Below, piece by piece: positions 17,694 to 26,600 of a DNA stretch of 64,000 nucleotides; position 1 is the first letter of the stretch, and each line of letters opens with the position of its first letter. Source of the stretch: Escherichia coli (GTDB taxonomy: Bacteria > Pseudomonadota > Gammaproteobacteria > Enterobacterales > Enterobacteriaceae); NCBI RefSeq assembly GCF_003334355.1, contig NZ_QOWP01000016.1; one strand, 5' to 3'. The notes under the pieces were generated by a model. That model was not told the DNA's origin and searched no databases. It saw only the letters and a program-made list of their open reading frames with translations. A program made the translations under genes and the position numbers.

Positions 17694-17825
17694 ATGGAAC
17701 CTTTTAAATATATATGCCATTACTGGGGAAAATCCTCAAAAAGCTTGACGAAAGGAAATGATATTCATCTGTTAATTTATCATTGCCTTGATGTTGCTGC
17801 TGTTGCAGATTGCTGGTGGGATTAA
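17694..17825 (+). pseudogene. cas3: cas3 5' segment: 43 codons (MEPFKYICHYWGKSSKSLTKGNDIHLLIYHCLDVAAVADCWWD) closed by an in-frame TAA
   Basis: ATG at 17694 with AGGGAGG 7 nt upstream; TAA at 17823-17825; the same frame continues into the 832-codon ORF. Confidence 0.7.
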
Positions 17826-17861
17826 TCAGTCGTACTGCAAAATACTTTTTGCCGAAATGAA

Positions 17862-20360
17862 ATGCTATCAAAACAGAGGGTGAAGGCCTGGCTGTTATTT
17901 TTCATTGCTCTTCATGATATTGGAAAGTTTGATATACGATTCCAATATAAATCAGCAGAAAGTTGGCTGAAATTAAATCCTGCAACGCCATCACTTAATG
18001 GTCCATCAACACAAATGTGCCGTAAATTTAATCATGGTGCAGCCGGTCTGTATTGGTTTAACCAGGATTCACTTTCAGAGCAATCTCTCGGGGATTTTTT
18101 CAGTTTTTTTGATGCCGCTCCTCATCCTTATGAGTCCTGGTTTCCATGGGTAGAGGCCGTTACAGGACATCATGGTTTTATATTACATTCCCAGGATCAA
18201 GATAAGTCGCGTTGGGAAATGCCAGCTTCTCTGGCATCTTATGCTGCGCAAGATAAACAGGCTCGTGAGGAGTGGATATCTGTACTGGAAGCATTATTTT
18301 TAACGCCAGCGGGGTTATCTATAAACGATATACCACCTGATTGTTCATCACTGTTAGCAGGTTTTTGCTCGCTTGCTGACTGGTTAGGCTCCTGGACTAC
18401 AACGAATACCTTTCTGTTTAATGAGGATGCGCCTTCCGACATAAATGCTCTGAGAACGTATTTCCAGGACCGACAGCAGGATGCGAGCCGGGTATTGGAG
18501 TTGAGTGGACTTGTATCAAATAAGCGATGTTATGAAGGTGTTCATGCACTACTGGACAATGGCTATCAACCCAGACAATTACAGGTGTTAGTTGATGCTC
18601 TTCCAGTAGCTCCCGGGCTGACGGTAATAGAGGCACCTACAGGCTCCGGTAAAACGGAAACAGCGCTGGCCTATGCTTGGAAACTTATTGATCAACAAAT
18701 TGCGGATAGTGTTATTTTTGCCCTCCCAACACAAGCTACCGCGAATGCTATGCTTACGAGAATGGAAGCGAGCGCGAGCCACTTATTTTCATCCCCAAAT
18801 CTTATTCTTGCTCATGGCAATTCACGGTTTAACCACCTCTTTCAATCAATAAAATCACGCGCGATTACTGAACAGGGGCAAGAAGAAGCGTGGGTTCAGT
18901 GTTGTCAGTGGTTGTCACAAAGCAATAAGAAAGTGTTTCTTGGGCAAATCGGCGTTTGCACGATTGATCAGGTGTTGATATCGGTATTGCCAGTTAAACA
19001 CCGCTTTATCCGTGGTTTGGGAATTGGTCGAAGTGTTTTAATTGTTGATGAAGTTCATGCTTACGACACCTATATGAACGGCTTGCTGGAGGCAGTGCTC
19101 AAGGCTCAGGCTGATGTGGGAGGGAGTGTTATTCTTCTTTCCGCAACCCTACCAATGAAACAAAAACAGAAACTTCTGGATACTTATGGTCTGCATACAG
19201 ATCCAGTGGAAAATAACTCCGCATATCCACTCATTAACTGGCGAGGTGTGAATGGTGCGCAACGTTTTGATCTGCTAGCTCATCCAGAACAACTCCCGCC
19301 CCGCTTTTCGATTCAGCCAGAACCTATTTATTTAGCTGACATGTTACCTGACCTTACGATGTTAGAGCGAATGATCGCAGCGGCAAACGCGGGTGCACAA
19401 GTCTGTCTTATTTGCAATTTGGTTGACGTTGCACAAGTATGCTACCAACGGCTAAAGGAGCTAAATAACACGCAAGTAGATATAGATTTGTTTCATGCAC
19501 GCTTTACGCTGAACGATCGTCGAGAAAAAGAGAATCGTGTTATTAGCGATTTCGGAAAAAATGGGGAGCGAAATGTTGGACGAATACTTGTCGCCACGCA
19601 AGTCGTGGAACAATCGCTCGACGTTGATTTTGATTGGTTAATTACCCAGCATTGTCCCGCAGATTTGCTTTTCCAACGATTGGGTCGTTTACATCGCCAT
19701 CATCGCAAATATCGTCCCGCTGGTTTTGAGATTCCTGTTGCCACCATTTTGCTGCCTGATGGCGAGGGTTACGGACGACATGAGCATATTTATAGCAACG
19801 TTAGAGTCATGTGGCGGACGCAGCAACATATTGAGGAACTTAATGGAGCATCCTTATTTTTCCCTGATGCCTACCGGCAATGGCTGGATAGCATTTACGA
19901 TGATGCTGAAATGGATGAGCCAGAATGGGTCATCAAAGGCATGGATAAGTTTGAAAGCGCTGAGTGTGAAAAGAGGTTCAAGGCTCGCAAGGTTCTGCAG
20001 TGGGCTGAAGAATATAGTTTGCAGGATAACGATGAAACCATTCTTGCGGTAACGAGGGATGGGGAAATGAGCCTGCCATTATTGCCTTATGTACAAACGT
20101 CTTCAGGTAAACAACTGCTCGATGGCCAGGTCTACGAGGACCTAAGTTATGAACAGCAGTATGAGGCGCTTGCACTTAATCGCGTCAATGTACCCTTCAC
20201 CTGGAAACGTAGTTTTTCTGAAGTAGTAGATGAAGATGGGTTACTTTGGCTGGAAGGGAAACAGAATCAGGATGGATGGTTCTGGCAGGGTAACAGTATT
20301 GTTATTACCTACACTCGGGATGAAGGGATGACCAGAGTCATCCCTGCAAATCCCAAATAA
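17862..20360 (+). CDS. cas3: Cas3 HD-nuclease/helicase, longest intact ORF (832 aa); lacks the first 56 codons of the recalled 888-aa protein
   Basis: HD motif (FFIALHDIGKF), Walker A (APTGSGKTE) and DEVH box (LIVDEVHAYD) are all present; no obvious SD upstream of ATG 17862. Confidence 0.85.
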   Translation: MLSKQRVKAWLLFFIALHDIGKFDIRFQYKSAESWLKLNPATPSLNGPSTQMCRKFNHGAAGLYWFNQDSLSEQSLGDFFSFFDAAPHPYESWFPWVEAVTGHHGFILHSQDQDKSRWEMPASLASYAAQDKQAREEWISVLEALFLTPAGLSINDIPPDCSSLLAGFCSLADWLGSWTTTNTFLFNEDAPSDINALRTYFQDRQQDASRVLELSGLVSNKRCYEGVHALLDNGYQPRQLQVLVDALPVAPGLTVIEAPTGSGKTETALAYAWKLIDQQIADSVIFALPTQATANAMLTRMEASASHLFSSPNLILAHGNSRFNHLFQSIKSRAITEQGQEEAWVQCCQWLSQSNKKVFLGQIGVCTIDQVLISVLPVKHRFIRGLGIGRSVLIVDEVHAYDTYMNGLLEAVLKAQADVGGSVILLSATLPMKQKQKLLDTYGLHTDPVENNSAYPLINWRGVNGAQRFDLLAHPEQLPPRFSIQPEPIYLADMLPDLTMLERMIAAANAGAQVCLICNLVDVAQVCYQRLKELNNTQVDIDLFHARFTLNDRREKENRVISDFGKNGERNVGRILVATQVVEQSLDVDFDWLITQHCPADLLFQRLGRLHRHHRKYRPAGFEIPVATILLPDGEGYGRHEHIYSNVRVMWRTQQHIEELNGASLFFPDAYRQWLDSIYDDAEMDEPEWVIKGMDKFESAECEKRFKARKVLQWAEEYSLQDNDETILAVTRDGEMSLPLLPYVQTSSGKQLLDGQVYEDLSYEQQYEALALNRVNVPFTWKRSFSEVVDEDGLLWLEGKQNQDGWFWQGNSIVITYTRDEGMTRVIPANPK

Positions 20361-20410
20361 CTTCGGGAATGATTGGTATCAATGACGATAACAAGACCAA
20401 TAACGGTTTA

Positions 20411-20428
20411 TCCCTACTTAAGTAGGGA
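20411..20428. other. 18-bp perfect palindrome TCCCTACTTAAGTAGGGA downstream of cas3
   Basis: Self-complementary around CTTAAG; no U-tract follows. Confidence 0.4.
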
Positions 20429-20429
20429 A

Positions 20430-20774
20430 GGTGCACAATGTACATCTTCTTTTAATTTCCCGGTATGAGATTTTATATTCGCAGTATGAATATTTTATGT
20501 AATAAAATTTATGGTAATTATTATAACTAAAAGTTTCTTTGATAATAAAACGAATAACTTGCAGATTTGAAATGCATGCATTATTGTCTTTAAACAATTC
20601 AACACATCTTAATATATGTATAGGTTAATTGTATTTAACCAATGAATATATTTTTGCAGTGAATGTGATTATTGAATTAATTACGCCGTATTTTTTCTTT
20701 GTTTTTACCGATAACGGAAGTGTGCCGACGTATAGAAATGCAGGAGAAATGTCGGAGCATATGAAGGAGAACAA
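20430..20774 (+). promoter_or_regulatory. AT-rich cas3-casA intergenic region carrying the casA operon promoter (Pcas; H-NS/LeuO control known in K-12)
   Basis: About 345 bp of visibly AT-rich non-coding DNA directly upstream of casA; promoter elements not pinpointed. Confidence 0.5.
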
Positions 20775-22283
20775 ATGAATTTGCTTATTGATAACTGGAT
20801 CCCTGTACGCCCGCGAAACGGGGGGAAAGTCCAAATCATAAATCTGCAATCGCTATACTGCAGTAGAGATCAGTGGCGATTAAGTTTGCCCCGTGACGAT
20901 ATGGAACTGGCCGCTTTAGCACTGCTGGTTTGCATTGGGCAAATTATCGACCCGGCAAAAGATGACGTTGAATTTCGACATCGCATAATGAATCCGCTCA
21001 CTGAAGATGAGTTTCAACAACTCATCGCGCCGTGGATAGATATGTTCTACCTTAATCACGCAGAACATCCCTTTATGCAGACCAAAGGTGTCAAAGCAAA
21101 TGATGTGACTCCAATGGAAAAACTGTTGGCAGGGGTAAGCGGCGCGACGAATTGTGCTTTTGTCAATCAACCGGGTCAGGGTGAAGCATTATGTGGTGGA
21201 TGCACTGCGATTGCGTTATTCAACCAGGCGAATCAGGCACCTGGTTTTGGTGGTGGCTTTAAAAGCGGTTTACGTGGAGGAACACCTATAACCACCTTCG
21301 TACGTGGGATCGATCTTCGCTCGACGGTGTTACTCAATGTCCTCACAATACCTCGTCTTCAAAAACAATTTCCCAATGAATCACATACGGAAAACCAACC
21401 TACCTGGGTTAAGCCTGTCAAACCCAATGAATCTGTGCCAGCTTCGTCAATTGGCTTTGTCCGCGGCTTATTCTGGCAACCTGCGCATATTGAATTATGC
21501 GATCCCATTGGGATTGGAAAATGTTCTTGCTGTGGACAGGAAAGCAATTTGCGTTATACCGGTTTTCTTAAGGAAAAATTTACCTTTACAGTTAATGGGC
21601 TATGGCCCCATCCGCATTCCCCTTGTCTGGTAACAGTCAAGAAAGGGGAGGTTGAGGAAAAATTTCTTGCTTTCACCACCTCCGCACCATCATGGACACA
21701 AATCAGCCGAGTTGTGGTAGATAAGATTATTCAAAATGAAAATGGAAATCGCGTGGCGGCGGTTGTGAATCAATTCAGAAATATTGCGCCGCAAAGTCCT
21801 CTTGAATTGATTATGGGGGGATATCGTAATAATCAAGCATCTATTCTTGAACGGCGTCATGATGTGTTGATGTTTAATCAGGGGTGGCAACAATACGGCA
21901 ATGTGATAAACGAAATAGTTACTGTTGGTTTGGGATATAAAACAGCCTTACGCAAGGCGTTATATACCTTTGCAGAAGGGTTTAAAAATAAAGACTTTAA
22001 AGGGGCTGGAGTCTCTGTTCATGAGACTGCAGAAAGGCATTTCTATCGACAGAGTGAATTATTAATTCCCGATGTACTGGCGAATGTTAATTTTTCCCAG
22101 GCTGATGAGGTCATAGCTGATTTACGAGACAAACTTCATCAATTGTGTGAAATGTTATTTAATCAATCTGTAGCGCCCTATGCACATCATCCTAAATTAA
22201 TAAGCACATTAGCGCTCGCCCGCGCCACGCTATACAAACATTTACGGGAGTTAAAACCGCAAGGAGGGCCATCAAATGGCTGA
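20775..22283 (+). CDS. casA: Cascade large subunit Cse1
   Basis: 502 aa, MNLLIDNWIPVRPRNGGKV... Confidence 0.95.
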   Translation: MNLLIDNWIPVRPRNGGKVQIINLQSLYCSRDQWRLSLPRDDMELAALALLVCIGQIIDPAKDDVEFRHRIMNPLTEDEFQQLIAPWIDMFYLNHAEHPFMQTKGVKANDVTPMEKLLAGVSGATNCAFVNQPGQGEALCGGCTAIALFNQANQAPGFGGGFKSGLRGGTPITTFVRGIDLRSTVLLNVLTIPRLQKQFPNESHTENQPTWVKPVKPNESVPASSIGFVRGLFWQPAHIELCDPIGIGKCSCCGQESNLRYTGFLKEKFTFTVNGLWPHPHSPCLVTVKKGEVEEKFLAFTTSAPSWTQISRVVVDKIIQNENGNRVAAVVNQFRNIAPQSPLELIMGGYRNNQASILERRHDVLMFNQGWQQYGNVINEIVTVGLGYKTALRKALYTFAEGFKNKDFKGAGVSVHETAERHFYRQSELLIPDVLANVNFSQADEVIADLRDKLHQLCEMLFNQSVAPYAHHPKLISTLALARATLYKHLRELKPQGGPSNG

Positions 22284-22758
22284 TGAAATTGATGCAATGG
22301 CTTTATATCGAGCCTGGCAACAACTGGATAACGGAGCATGTGCGCAAATTAGACGTGTTTCAGAACCTGATGAATTACGCGATATCCCTGCGTTTTATAG
22401 GCTGGTGCAACCTTTTGGTTGGGAAAACCCACGTCACCAGCAGGCTCTTTTACGCATGGTGTTTTGCCTGAGCGCAGGAAAGAATGTCATCCGACATCAG
22501 GACAAAAAACCGGAGCAAACAACAGGTATCTCGTTGGGAAGAGCTTTAGCCAATAGTGGAAGAATTAACGAGCGCCGTATCTTTCAATTAATTCGGGCTG
22601 ACAGAACAGCCGATATGGTCCAGTTACGTCGATTGCTTGCTCACGCCGAACCCGTACTTGACTGGCCATTAATGGCCAGGATGTTGACCTGGTGGGGAAA
22701 GCGCGAACGCCAGCAACTTCTGGAAGATTTTGTATTGACCACAAACAAAAATGCGTAA
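22276..22758 (+). CDS. casB: Cascade small subunit Cse2
   Basis: 160 aa; overlaps the casA end. Confidence 0.95.
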   Translation: MADEIDAMALYRAWQQLDNGACAQIRRVSEPDELRDIPAFYRLVQPFGWENPRHQQALLRMVFCLSAGKNVIRHQDKKPEQTTGISLGRALANSGRINERRIFQLIRADRTADMVQLRRLLAHAEPVLDWPLMARMLTWWGKRERQQLLEDFVLTTNKNA

Positions 22759-26449: not shown

Positions 26450-26600
26450 GAGTTCCCCGCGTCAGCGGGGATAAACCGCCAAAGCAAAAGAAGTCGTCGA
26501 TAATATGCGTGAGTTCCCCGCGTCAGCGGGGATAAACCGGGCGCACTGGATGCGATGATGGATATCACTTAGAATTCCCCGCCCCTGCGGTAGAACACCC
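26450..26600 (+). CRISPR. Cas-adjacent CRISPR array (CRISPR2.1-like): 2 intact repeats plus a degenerate terminal repeat, 2 spacers
   Basis: GAGTTCCCCGCGTCAGCGGGGATAAACCG at 26450 and 26511 (T at repeat position 13, where the distal array has C); degenerate GAATTCCCCGCCCCTGCGGTAGAACACCC at 26572. Confidence 0.93.

Follow-up and report, generated by a model that had tools for sequence, protein, structure and literature searches.

What does a perfect palindrome do between cas3 and casA of the Escherichia coli type I-E CRISPR locus? In the 64,000-nucleotide stretch of E. coli DNA that we analysed (the window), TCCCTACTTAAGTAGGGA at 20411-20428 is a perfect 18-bp palindrome, and 50 nt separate it from the cas3 stop codon, which ends at 20360. 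A first-pass annotation had described it in these terms, and our sequence check agrees. That annotation favoured a protein-binding site or an RNA processing element over a terminator, an interpretation that our results partly support: RNA processing was close to the mark, and the protein operator did not hold up because pairing, not sequence, is what is conserved. The annotation had read the plus strand; the repeat and its handle ATAAACCG lie on the minus strand, so the relevant RNA is antisense and is not the 3’ UTR of cas3. The reading that we favour, with a probability of about 0.8, is that the palindrome is the hairpin of a degenerate CRISPR repeat on the strand opposite cas3 and casA, and that the RNA of the mini-array containing it guides Cascade to the cas promoter, shutting off its own expression.

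The bare palindrome is statistically unremarkable. Markov-1 shuffles of the 64-kb window yield 0.34 perfect palindromes whose arms are 9 nt or longer, and 29% of the shuffles contain one or more; the window has two, the other at 22662-22679 within casB. We found no link between that second site and the phage CasPR repressor, whose paper concerns I-B and II-A systems only. It is the context of the intergenic palindrome, and not palindromy itself, that lifts it above chance. The surrounding DNA is low in GC (0.22-0.27 over 20400-20700 vs about 0.45 in the flanking genes). The spacer at 20361-20774 is identical to that of K-12 MG1655 at 408 of 414 positions (98.6%), with none of the six differences in the palindrome. 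Conservation in related strains, which the first-pass annotation had left as a check, is nearly complete: among the 1132 complete E. coli genomes having the same cas allele as the window, 1126 carry a 48-nt segment, with the palindrome at its centre, at 99% identity or more, and it is always single-copy and chromosomal. A REP/BIME-type repeat can be dismissed, given one site per genome and a single match in the window with up to three mismatches allowed. Variation within the species offers no further help. A blastn search in ‘distant’ mode recovered no E. coli spacer alleles below 90% identity, which indicates that the second I-E allele of E. coli has diverged too far for alignment; the spacer essentially comes in two haplotypes, and within-species variation is uninformative. 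The Rfam scan of 19800-21200 (E <= 10) gave four sub-threshold chance matches of snoRNA type and nothing else, neither CRISPR-DR nor any other family; among the records listed, no annotated feature underlies the match, and our full-text literature search found no paper that prints the palindrome sequence.

Read on the minus strand, the palindrome becomes part of a recognisable unit. The 29 nt from 20432 down to 20404, ACCTTCCCTACTTAAGTAGGGATAAACCG, form a degenerate type I-E repeat, which we call PsiR1. It is identical at 19 of 29 positions to the repeat GAGTTCCCCGCGCCAGCGGGGATAAACCG of the window’s own arrays (taken on the plus strand), a level reached by none of 2000 shuffled intergenic regions, and the identity lies chiefly in TTCCC, in the basal stem and in 11 consecutive nt that match exactly, GGGATAAACCG. 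The crRNA 5’ handle is formed by its final 8 nt, ATAAACCG, which match the array repeat at 8 of 8 positions. Within PsiR1 the palindrome supplies the 7-bp stem and a UUAA tetraloop (UCCCUAC-UUAA-GUAGGGA), and it is perfect only because the E. coli tetraloop happens to be TTAA. The ten substitutions spare all eight handle positions and the basal stem. Four of them fall in the stem as two complementary pairs, an arrangement expected by chance in an estimated 2% of cases (21/1001, for four changes over 14 stem positions). Pairs 9/18 and 10/17 have changed from C-G and G-C to U-A and A-U, and all seven stem pairs are kept, two of them by double substitution. Folded alone, PsiR1 gives -10.3 kcal/mol and the same bracket pattern as the array repeat.

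Downstream on the minus strand comes a 31-nt spacer-like guide, PsiS (20373-20403; TTATTGGTCTTGTTATCGTCATTGATACCAA), whose K-12 counterpart departs from it at just two guide positions, 12 and 28, and then a strongly degenerate second repeat, PsiR2 (20344-20372; TCATTCCCGAAGTTATTTGGGATTTGCAG), matching the array repeat at 14 of 29 positions. PsiR2 extends across the stop codon of cas3 (20358-20360) and its final codons, still has TTCCC...GGGAT and a tetraloop on a 7-bp stem, and includes a region, CCCAAA..TTTGGGAAC, that is conserved in relatives. It starts 60 nt from the start of PsiR1, compared with 61 nt in the arrays. Two repeat-like units at array-like spacing, outside an array and inside the cas locus between cas3 and casA, make up a mini-CRISPR. 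One PsiR2 stem pair, as read from the sequences, is G-U on the minus strand and an A-C mismatch on the plus strand, which counts for a structure specific to the minus strand. Directly after PsiR2, inside the last cas3 codons, lies a strong minus-strand hairpin (20321-20348, inverted repeat I4). It lacks the U-tract looked for by the terminator scan and is a candidate for the 3’ end, or the terminator, of the antisense transcript. Counterparts lie behind PsiR2 in Citrobacter, both Pantoea loci, Edaphovirga and the Methylobacter-type loci, and such hairpins are absent at the cas3 ends of the compared loci that lack a mini-array. The predicted fold of the minus-strand RNA from 20540 to 20300 has an energy of -64.1 kcal/mol (z = -4.7), and both the MFE and the centroid structure contain the three hairpins.

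The comparison across genera shows what is being conserved. A minus-strand PsiR1 occurs just after cas3 in six further loci: those of Citrobacter amalonaticus, two Pantoea, Edaphovirga and Methylobacter marinus, and a related metagenome contig. The guides share no sequence relationship. For every locus, the best AAG-flanked match of the guide is found on the same strand, in the stretch from the mini-array to casA, and shuffled guides reach such a match only 0 to 40 times in 5000. Position is conserved, in other words, and guide and target co-vary across four named genera and the metagenome contig. Over 12 repeat and pseudo-repeat sequences, 96.4% of the stem cells are paired, vs 39-62% when the partner is slid; three stem pairs have changed on both sides, and none of 500 shuffles reached the covariation score. 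Pairing is conserved between genera and stem sequence and loop are not, and the strictly conserved flank is one-sided, namely the handle. Changes of stem and loop sequence that keep the pairing are the signature of an RNA, not of DNA recognition.

The guide has a predicted Cascade target within the same spacer. On the minus strand at 20526-20560, an AAG PAM (20560 to 20558) precedes a protospacer (20557 to 20526) about 215-218 nt upstream of the casA start codon and coinciding with direct repeat D2 of our repeat scan. PsiS matches it at 7 of 7 seed positions and at 14 of 15 positions when every sixth is set aside; mismatches fall at 6, 12, 18 and 9, and effective pairing covers guide positions 1-17, with none beyond 17. 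Apart from PsiS itself, no other site in the 64-kb window attains a seed of at least 6/7 together with at least 12/15, and not one of 20,000 shuffled intergenic regions or of 5000 shuffled guides equalled the match. No PAM-flanked seed match was found within the window for the other degenerate repeats (1355-1493) or for the two CRISPR-1 spacers. Partial complementarity to a site with a canonical PAM is what the CreR/CreA class of Cas-regulating RNAs displays; here, the adjacency of that site to a promoter comes from consensus matches and from a statement by Shmakov et al.

The promoters around this target suggest where the mini-array RNA would arise. By orthology and AT-richness the remainder of the spacer (20433-20774, GC 0.22-0.32) is the K-12 Pcas/anti-Pcas region, as the first-pass annotation had proposed; the 98.6% identity and the descriptions in PMC10011333 and PMC7074321 bear it out. 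Sites for H-NS, LeuO, LrhA and CRP are described in this region (PMC10011333, PMC12968389, PMC10120712). Promoter prediction, a further check left by that annotation, produced three consensus matches. Two overlapping sigma-70-like candidates lie on the minus strand at 20517-20571, one with its -35 at 20571-20566 and its -10 at 20547-20542, the other with its -35 at 20545-20540 and its -10 at 20522-20517. They overlap the target and are candidates for anti-Pcas, the promoter of the mini-array. A third candidate (20559-20587, plus strand) points toward casA, with the -35 TTGCAG at 20559-20564, a 17-nt spacer and the -10 TATTGT at 20582-20587; it may be Pcas. The TT of its -35 is the complement of the target PAM, and the same overlap of PAM and -35 recurs in Edaphovirga (CTTGCAG) and Citrobacter (CTTGATT). 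A transcript from the minus-strand candidates to the hairpin, ending near 20318, would be about 190-220 nt long, and the anti-Pcas RNA is put at 150-200 nt in the literature (PMC7074321). In K-12, anti-Pcas is a divergent H-NS-repressed promoter that gives a structured RNA, as far as its published descriptions go; its position, orientation and approximate length fit the predicted mini-array precursor, and the two are probably the same transcript. The anti-Pcas RNA overlaps the 3’ end of cas3 and is given no function in PMC7074321 and PMC10011333, which relate a proposal that it interferes with cas3 termination or translation (Pul et al. 2010).

Taken together, the anatomy points to a simple feedback circuit, whose transcription, processing, loading and repression steps we infer. 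The divergent anti-Pcas promoter would drive an RNA of about 200 nt through PsiR1, PsiS, PsiR2 and the terminal hairpin in the 3’ codons of cas3. Cas6e (CasE) would cut at the base of both hairpins and release a crRNA-like RNA of about 60 nt, consisting of the 5’ handle AUAAACCG, the 31-nt guide and the PsiR2 hairpin. This RNA is predicted to begin AUAAACCG-UUAUUGG, with the 5’ end AUAAACCGUUAUUGG. Efficient processing is not assured, since the upper stem and loop of PsiR1 are non-canonical and PsiR2 matches at only 14 of 29 positions. Cascade carrying the RNA would bind the AAG-flanked site at 20526-20560, and because pairing is limited to the seed and about 17 nt it would do so without recruiting Cas3. 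Lodged on back-to-back promoters, it would repress transcription toward casA, and probably the promoter of the mini-array as well. The outcome would be negative feedback of Cascade on its own synthesis, and titration of Cascade by ordinary crRNAs or by anti-CRISPRs would lift it.

The idea is not new. The class has been validated by experiment in systems of types I-E (Salmonella), I-F1 (Pseudomonas aeruginosa; PMC10120712), V-A (Moraxella) and I-B (haloarchaea), and a study of 2023 predicted an instance for E. coli. In that study, Shmakov et al. (PMC10120712) predict an I-E mini-array between cas3 and cas8, opposite to cas3, with an AAG-flanked target that overlaps an H-NS site a short way upstream of Pcas. 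Its location between cas3 and cas8e, the opposite orientation, the AAG PAM, the tolerance of sixth-position mismatches and the H-NS-bound target are all shared with the mini-array described here, which is very probably their element; we equate the two by description and not by sequence. The preprint text available to us does not name the anti-Pcas transcript, and we found in it no mention of a hairpin in the 3’ codons of cas3 or of a small peptide ORF accompanying the element in relatives of this allele.

The closest precedent for the mechanism is the CreR of Salmonella. With MG1655 Cascade, the Salmonella I-E CreR represses its own casA promoter about 8.6-fold, and repression is relieved by crRNA overexpression or by AcrIE8 (Liu et al. 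2023, bioRxiv 10.1101/2023.03.10.532045). Promoter repression that depends on Cascade and not on Cas3 has been demonstrated both there and for the P. aeruginosa I-F1 mini-array (PMC10120712). The CreR of Salmonella enterica ATCC 51960 resembles the E. coli element in being a degenerate mini-CRISPR in an I-E cas locus, in the 8-nt handle of PsiR1, in the base of the PsiR2 hairpin, and in a guide that pairs partly with an AAG-flanked site upstream of casA. It differs in that its PsiS starts with TAG and has 15 consecutive nt in common with its own target, in the guide and target sequences themselves, and in the distance of the target from casA (about 140 bp vs about 215 bp in E. coli); a further difference is that the upper stem of the E. 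coli PsiR1 is A-U rich. On these sequence features, the E. coli element fits the known CreR/CreA class.

Other explanations of the palindrome have to be weighed against this one. It is possible, though unlikely, that the mini-array is a relic, a decayed orphan pair of repeats that is neither processed nor used, and that the palindrome has no present function in E. coli. The E. coli PsiR1 is indeed the most diverged of the copies compared (19/29, vs 20-25/29 in four enterobacterial loci), and PsiR2 retains only 14 of 29 positions. Under laboratory conditions the cas locus is silent, and damage to it is frequent: cas3 in the window has Q44*, casA is a pseudogene in strains L73 and H9Ecoli, and an IS1 splits PsiS in H9Ecoli. 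The literature searched also contained no experimental test of the E. coli element. Decay, however, would have had to pass over the handle and the basal stem, to strike the stem only in compensatory pairs (the estimated 2% chance given above), and to leave the PAM, the seed and 14 of 15 positions of target complementarity in place, and the element is invariant in 1126 of 1132 genomes. A perfect palindrome also folds into the same hairpin in both transcripts, and on the plus strand it could instead serve as a hairpin at the 3’ end of the cas3 mRNA, which it would stabilise against exonucleases, or as a signal ending transcription before casA with or without Rho. Its place 50 nt past the cas3 stop would suit such a role, as would the report that cas3 and casABCDE are separate transcription units (PMC10011333). 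This we consider improbable. In agreement with the first-pass annotation, no U-tract or T-run follows the palindrome on either strand and the terminator scan calls nothing at 20411-20428, so that an intrinsic terminator lacks its hallmark; the conserved flank ATAAACCG makes sense on the minus strand only, and the G-U pair of PsiR2 turns into an A-C mismatch on the plus strand. In relatives that lack the element, cas3 and casA share a 4-nt overlap, and a terminator is therefore not generally needed at this junction. Least credible of all is an operator for a dimeric DNA-binding protein, for which the perfect twofold symmetry over 18 bp and a region dense in regulator sites would speak. As a lead only, the palindrome has what we take to be a resemblance to the layout of the trp operator (CTAG-TTAA-CTAG vs CTAC-TTAA-GTAG). 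An operator would be expected to show conserved, symmetric sequence and further copies; the palindrome is single-copy in the window and has one site per genome, the loops of its relatives are not self-complementary, and conservation is asymmetric, with the handle on one side only. The reported LeuO and LrhA sites flank the Pcas start, and no site for any regulator is reported at the palindrome (PMC12968389).

A different alternative takes the mini-array for a CreA antitoxin that represses a toxin gene between the target and casA, instead of or besides regulating cas. Its model is CreTA. In the I-E locus of Citrobacter rodentium, creA and a translated 96-bp creT occupy the cas3-casA spacer, with a target overlapping the creT promoter’s UP element (PMC12055562). 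There and in the I-B system of Haloarcula hispanica, as at the E. coli locus, a crRNA-like RNA lies in the cas3-casA spacer opposite the promoter it regulates, with a target abutting the promoter’s upstream element. The six loci related to that of E. coli have a small ORF at the creT position: a single-helix hydrophobic peptide of 35-42 aa, starting 57-74 nt beyond the target and in most cases preceded by a visible Shine-Dalgarno sequence. A database search brought up 12 such peptides, four identical to ORFs of these loci and eight being additional variants of the Methylobacter type. For one of them three contigs were examined, and in all three it lies between cas3 and cse1; two members differ by 11 synonymous and 5 non-synonymous codon changes. 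The E. coli target lies 218 nt from casA, within the range of the related loci. The stretch between them, however, contains only TTG- or GTG-initiated frames, none with a Shine-Dalgarno sequence, and hence no ATG/Shine-Dalgarno small ORF of the relatives’ family; the profile HMM of the peptide family finds no match in the six-frame translation of the window (best E-value 0.85, elsewhere). The toxicity of the relatives’ peptides is itself putative, and C. rodentium differs from E. coli in its ATG PAM, its 495-bp spacer and a toxin ORF of a kind that is not recognisable here. Deletions of cas genes in K-12 are viable and the spacer has been cloned, which also counts against a toxin. We regard a working CreTA module at this locus as very improbable; a toxin of some other, unrecognised type is conceivable.

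The peptides of the relatives merit notice in their own right. These 35-42-aa single-helix predicted membrane peptides, of which that of Citrobacter amalonaticus is MDLKRIIDSLNRITPLAITFIALVIAMLALVVVLRSQ, form an unannotated and uncharacterised family without credible matches in Pfam, NCBIfam, PADLOC or PHROGs, and their ORF sits exactly between target and casA, the position of a Cascade-repressed toxin. We looked for a decayed creT in the E. coli frame at 20629-20778, in which an ‘ITP’ motif and a hydrophobic stretch had been noticed by eye; MAFFT identity was 11% and the family HMM found nothing, leaving the suggestion unsupported. It is tempting to speculate that the K-12-type cas3-casA spacer is a former CreTA addiction module that lost its toxin and kept the RNA, the target and the promoter, a history that we hold only tentatively and rate as somewhat doubtful. 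Were it true, Pcas would once have driven the toxin, and the anti-Pcas RNA would give rise to a regulator of Cas autoregulation alone, which would repress its own promoter too.

If, as we favour, the mini-array RNA directs Cascade to the cas promoter, the consequences concern a system that has served as a reference. Work on Cascade takes the type I-E system of E. coli K-12 as its standard, and the silence of the cas operon there is well known. The locus is silenced by H-NS under laboratory conditions, and the circuit could therefore matter only once that silencing is lifted. Experiments that delete hns or replace the spacer with a synthetic promoter may be affected, because such constructs would remove the feedback if it is functional. 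Genome annotation leaves the spacer empty in the records listed, and the mini-array is worth annotating. A functional element would add RNA-guided feedback on Cascade synthesis to the control exerted by H-NS, LeuO, LrhA and CRP, and it would give a function to the anti-Pcas transcript, unexplained since 2010.

The cas locus of this E. coli window is of the K-12 type I-E: cysI and cysH lie upstream of cas3 (17694-20360), a 414-bp spacer follows, and casA (20775-22283) opens the remainder of the operon, with casB and cas7 next. The first-pass annotation had singled out TCCCTACTTAAGTAGGGA at 20411-20428, which is a perfect palindrome beginning 50 nt past the cas3 stop; it was correct that the element lacks a U-tract and is not a terminator, as no T-run flanks it on either side. 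The remainder of the spacer is AT-rich as described (GC only 0.22-0.27 over 20400-20700) and is the K-12 Pcas region. Over all 414 positions of the spacer there are 6 differences from MG1655, and the palindrome contains none of them. Of the 5426 complete E. coli genomes, about 1130 carry the spacer, in a single chromosomal copy in every case. Shuffles yield on average 0.34 perfect 18-bp palindromes per window, so the two observed are unusual; a bare 18-bp palindrome is nevertheless not rare, and its significance must therefore come from context. The second, CTGGCCATTAATGGCCAG in casB (22662-22679), likewise has 7-bp arms around TTAA; K-12 carries the identical sequence, which codes for ..DWPLMAR.. 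and lacks repeat-like features.

The context of the cas3-proximal palindrome marks it as part of a degenerate CRISPR repeat. Its suspected role as an RNA processing element thus appears right, although it had been read on the wrong strand and its repeat identity overlooked. The first degenerate repeat, PsiR1 (minus strand, 20432->20404, ACCTTCCCTACTTAAGTAGGGATAAACCG), is identical at 19 of 29 positions to the repeat of the window's own plus-strand CRISPR arrays at 79-900 and 26450-26539, GAGTTCCCCGCG(C/T)CAGCGGGGATAAACCG, including TTCCC and the three basal C-G pairs; no shuffled spacer attains this score. The two share an unbroken GGGATAAACCG; in type I-E crRNA processing this stretch holds the point at which Cas6e cuts and the 8-nt 5' handle. 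Both pairs of the upper stem are substituted on both sides (C-G to U-A, G-C to A-U), so the geometry of a 7-bp stem and tetraloop is kept. A 31-nt spacer-like segment, PsiS (minus, 20403->20373), leads into a second and far more degenerate repeat, PsiR2 (minus, 20372->20344), in which TTCCC..GGGAT and a 7-bp stem survive; read from the sequence, its one G-U wobble would be an A-C mismatch in plus-strand RNA. A strong hairpin (minus, 20348->20321) follows within the final cas3 codons. Folding of minus-strand RNA from 20540 to 20300 gives z = -4.7, and the MFE and centroid structures alike contain the three hairpins. A strong antisense-strand hairpin directly follows PsiR2 in every mini-array locus (the window and the retrieved loci L003, L005, L006, L021, L028 and L031), and none is seen where cas3 ends in loci that lack a mini-array. 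The hairpin resembles an RNA 3'-end element forced upon protein-coding sequence. The last cas3 codons contain it in E. coli, Citrobacter and Pantoea, where its arms GGGATG..CATCCC are G-M and I-P codons.

PsiS begins at its 5' end with TTATTGGTCTTGTTATCG, and its predicted target on the minus strand (20560->20526) reads AAG, the canonical type I-E PAM, followed by TTATTCGTTTTATTATC. Guide positions 1-5, 7-8, 10-11 and 13-17 match. The mismatches fall at 6, 12 and 18, plus 9, and Cascade leaves every sixth guide base unpaired (Shmakov et al. 2023, PMC10120712). Excepting PsiS itself, no other site in the 64 kb of the window reaches a seed of at least 6/7 together with at least 12/15 informative positions; an equivalent arose in 0 of 20000 shuffled spacers and with 0 of 5000 shuffled guides. 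In K-12, guide position 12 and target position 17 are changed, with PAM, seed and 13/15 matches still intact. Two minus-strand sigma-70-like promoter candidates overlap the target, and a plus-strand candidate toward casA, TTGCAG-17-TATTGT, starts with the TT of the PAM complement; all are consensus matches. The window has three plus-strand repeat clusters: the 14-repeat array at 79-900, a short degenerate cluster at 1355-1493 in which a unit ending AGGGATAAACCG is separated from the following repeat by just 20 nt, and the two-spacer CRISPR-1 at 26450-26600, which ends in a decayed repeat. Neither the spacers of the degenerate cluster nor those of CRISPR-1 gave a PAM-flanked self-target in the window.

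Some relatives share the arrangement. A CasA protein scan, taking one genome per species, gave 27 loci, 23 of them analysable. In most of these cas3 and casA overlap by 4 nt (an ATGA stop/start overlap and no spacer in L004, L007, L008, L010, L012, L014, L016-L019, L022 and L025), and a long spacer co-occurs with a mini-array. Spacers exceed 300 bp in seven loci. In six of these, from Citrobacter amalonaticus, two Pantoea, Edaphovirga cremea, Methylobacter marinus and a Thiotrichaceae MAG, a minus-strand repeat-like unit lies a short way past the end of cas3, and the handle (A/G)TAAACC(G/A) or ATGAACCG is kept in five of the six. The seventh, a Methylobacter sp. MAG (L028), has a handle-bearing unit in a 604-bp spacer, and this unit also occurs in L031, a related metagenome contig found later. 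The relatives' guides are unrelated to that of E. coli and to one another, and in 6/6 handle-bearing loci the best AAG-flanked guide match lies on the same strand between mini-array and casA, with 10-15 of 15 informative positions matched (equalled 0-40 times by 5000 shuffled guides). In a comparison of 12 repeats and pseudo-repeats, 96.4% of stem cells are paired, against 39-62% with slid partners, and three stem pairs show double changes. Taken together, pairing that outlasts sequence change, an invariant flank on one side only and co-varying guide and target are what is expected of a functional crRNA-like RNA, and not of a DNA operator.

These observations bear on the other explanations. 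The protein-binding site proposed in the first-pass annotation is unsupported: the palindrome is single-copy and pairing alone is conserved, which makes an operator extremely improbable. A 3' hairpin of the cas3 mRNA would leave the one-sided handle, the G-U pair of PsiR2 and the target unexplained, and is very unlikely. It is less far-fetched, but still unlikely, that the mini-array is a relic without function, since its substitution pattern is non-random and PAM and seed are retained.

It could also be the crRNA-like antitoxin (CreA) of a hidden toxin. In the type I-E locus of C. rodentium, a translated 96-bp creT in the cas3-casA spacer is repressed by a crRNA-like CreA encoded on the opposite strand (PMC12055562). 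Every related locus studied has an unannotated ORF for a 35-42-aa hydrophobic single-helix peptide (L003 3367-3480, L005 3326-3454, L006 3354-3473, L021 3381-3491, L028 3147-3254, L031 3001-3108), starting 57-74 nt beyond the target and ending shortly before casA, which is the position of a Cascade-repressed toxin. A database search recovered 12 such peptides, 4 identical to locus ORFs and 8 further Methylobacter-type variants; for one such peptide three contigs were examined, and in each it lies between cas3 and cse1. Between two members compared, 11 codon changes are synonymous and 5 non-synonymous, and the family has no match in Pfam, NCBIfam, PADLOC or PHROG. The E. coli stretch from target to casA holds no ATG/Shine-Dalgarno ORF, and the peptide-family HMM gave no hit in the window. 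The E. coli element therefore looks like a stand-alone Cas-regulating RNA of the CreR type, and a hidden toxin is a shade less probable even than the cas3 mRNA hairpin. Two Methylobacter-type I-E loci (L031 5165-5688, L032 3067-3590) carry a DUF4160/DUF2442 gene pair (85 and 86 aa) between cse2 and cas7, which may be small toxin-antitoxin-like cargo within the Cascade operon.

Antisense crRNA-like autoregulation of Cascade is the best-supported explanation of the element; all four of its steps are inferred, with support from precedents. An antisense promoter in the AT-rich spacer would produce an RNA covering PsiR1, PsiS, PsiR2 and the terminal hairpin, and Cas6e cleavage at both pseudo-repeats would release an RNA of about 60 nt. 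Cascade loaded with this RNA would bind the partial target without licensing Cas3, and would thereby block the back-to-back promoters, a negative feedback on its own expression. With MG1655 Cascade, the Salmonella I-E CreR represses its own casA promoter about 8.6-fold, and repression is lifted by crRNA overexpression or AcrIE8 (10.1101/2023.03.10.532045). A P. aeruginosa I-F1 mini-array represses its own Cascade promoter without Cas3 (PMC10120712). The K-12 spacer contains a divergent, H-NS-repressed promoter, anti-Pcas, whose structured 150-200-nt RNA overlaps the cas3 3' end and is given no function in that literature (PMC7074321, PMC10011333). At some 190-220 nt, starting about 20510-20535 and ending about 20318, the predicted precursor agrees with it in position, orientation and approximate size, and the mini-array transcript is probably anti-Pcas.

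The state of the cas genes varies among close relatives. Relative to K-12, cas3 codon 44 (17823-17825) is changed from CAG to TAG; this premature stop, Q44*, splits the annotated 888-aa gene into 43-aa and 832-aa frames in the same register, and interference in this strain is probably defective. The Cascade genes, casA included, and the mini-array are intact. Near-identical loci are knocked out in different cas genes: casA is an annotated pseudogene with an internal stop in strains L73 (L002) and H9Ecoli (L030, NZ_CP029180.1), whose spacers are 100% identical to that of the window. In H9Ecoli an IS1 inside PsiS, at the equivalent of about 20378/20379, leaves PsiR1 and the seed on one side and PsiR2 with the hairpin on the other; the H47 and H67 genomes have an IS1 somewhere within 19900-21100.

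Shmakov et al. (2023) described an E. coli I-E mini-array between cas3 and cas8, transcribed opposite to cas3, with an AAG-flanked target overlapping an H-NS site just upstream of Pcas and a transcription start region overlapping LeuO and CRP sites (PMC10120712). Matched by its description in the preprint text, where the name anti-Pcas is not used, the element derived independently here is very probably the same. Full-text literature search found no paper that prints the palindrome, and the literature searched held no experiments on the E. coli mini-array. The element thus belongs to a class already known and validated by experiment, and has been predicted computationally for E. coli before. 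Of continuing interest are the proposed E. coli circuit, the probable identity of its RNA with anti-Pcas, and a candidate family of toxin-like peptides in relatives.
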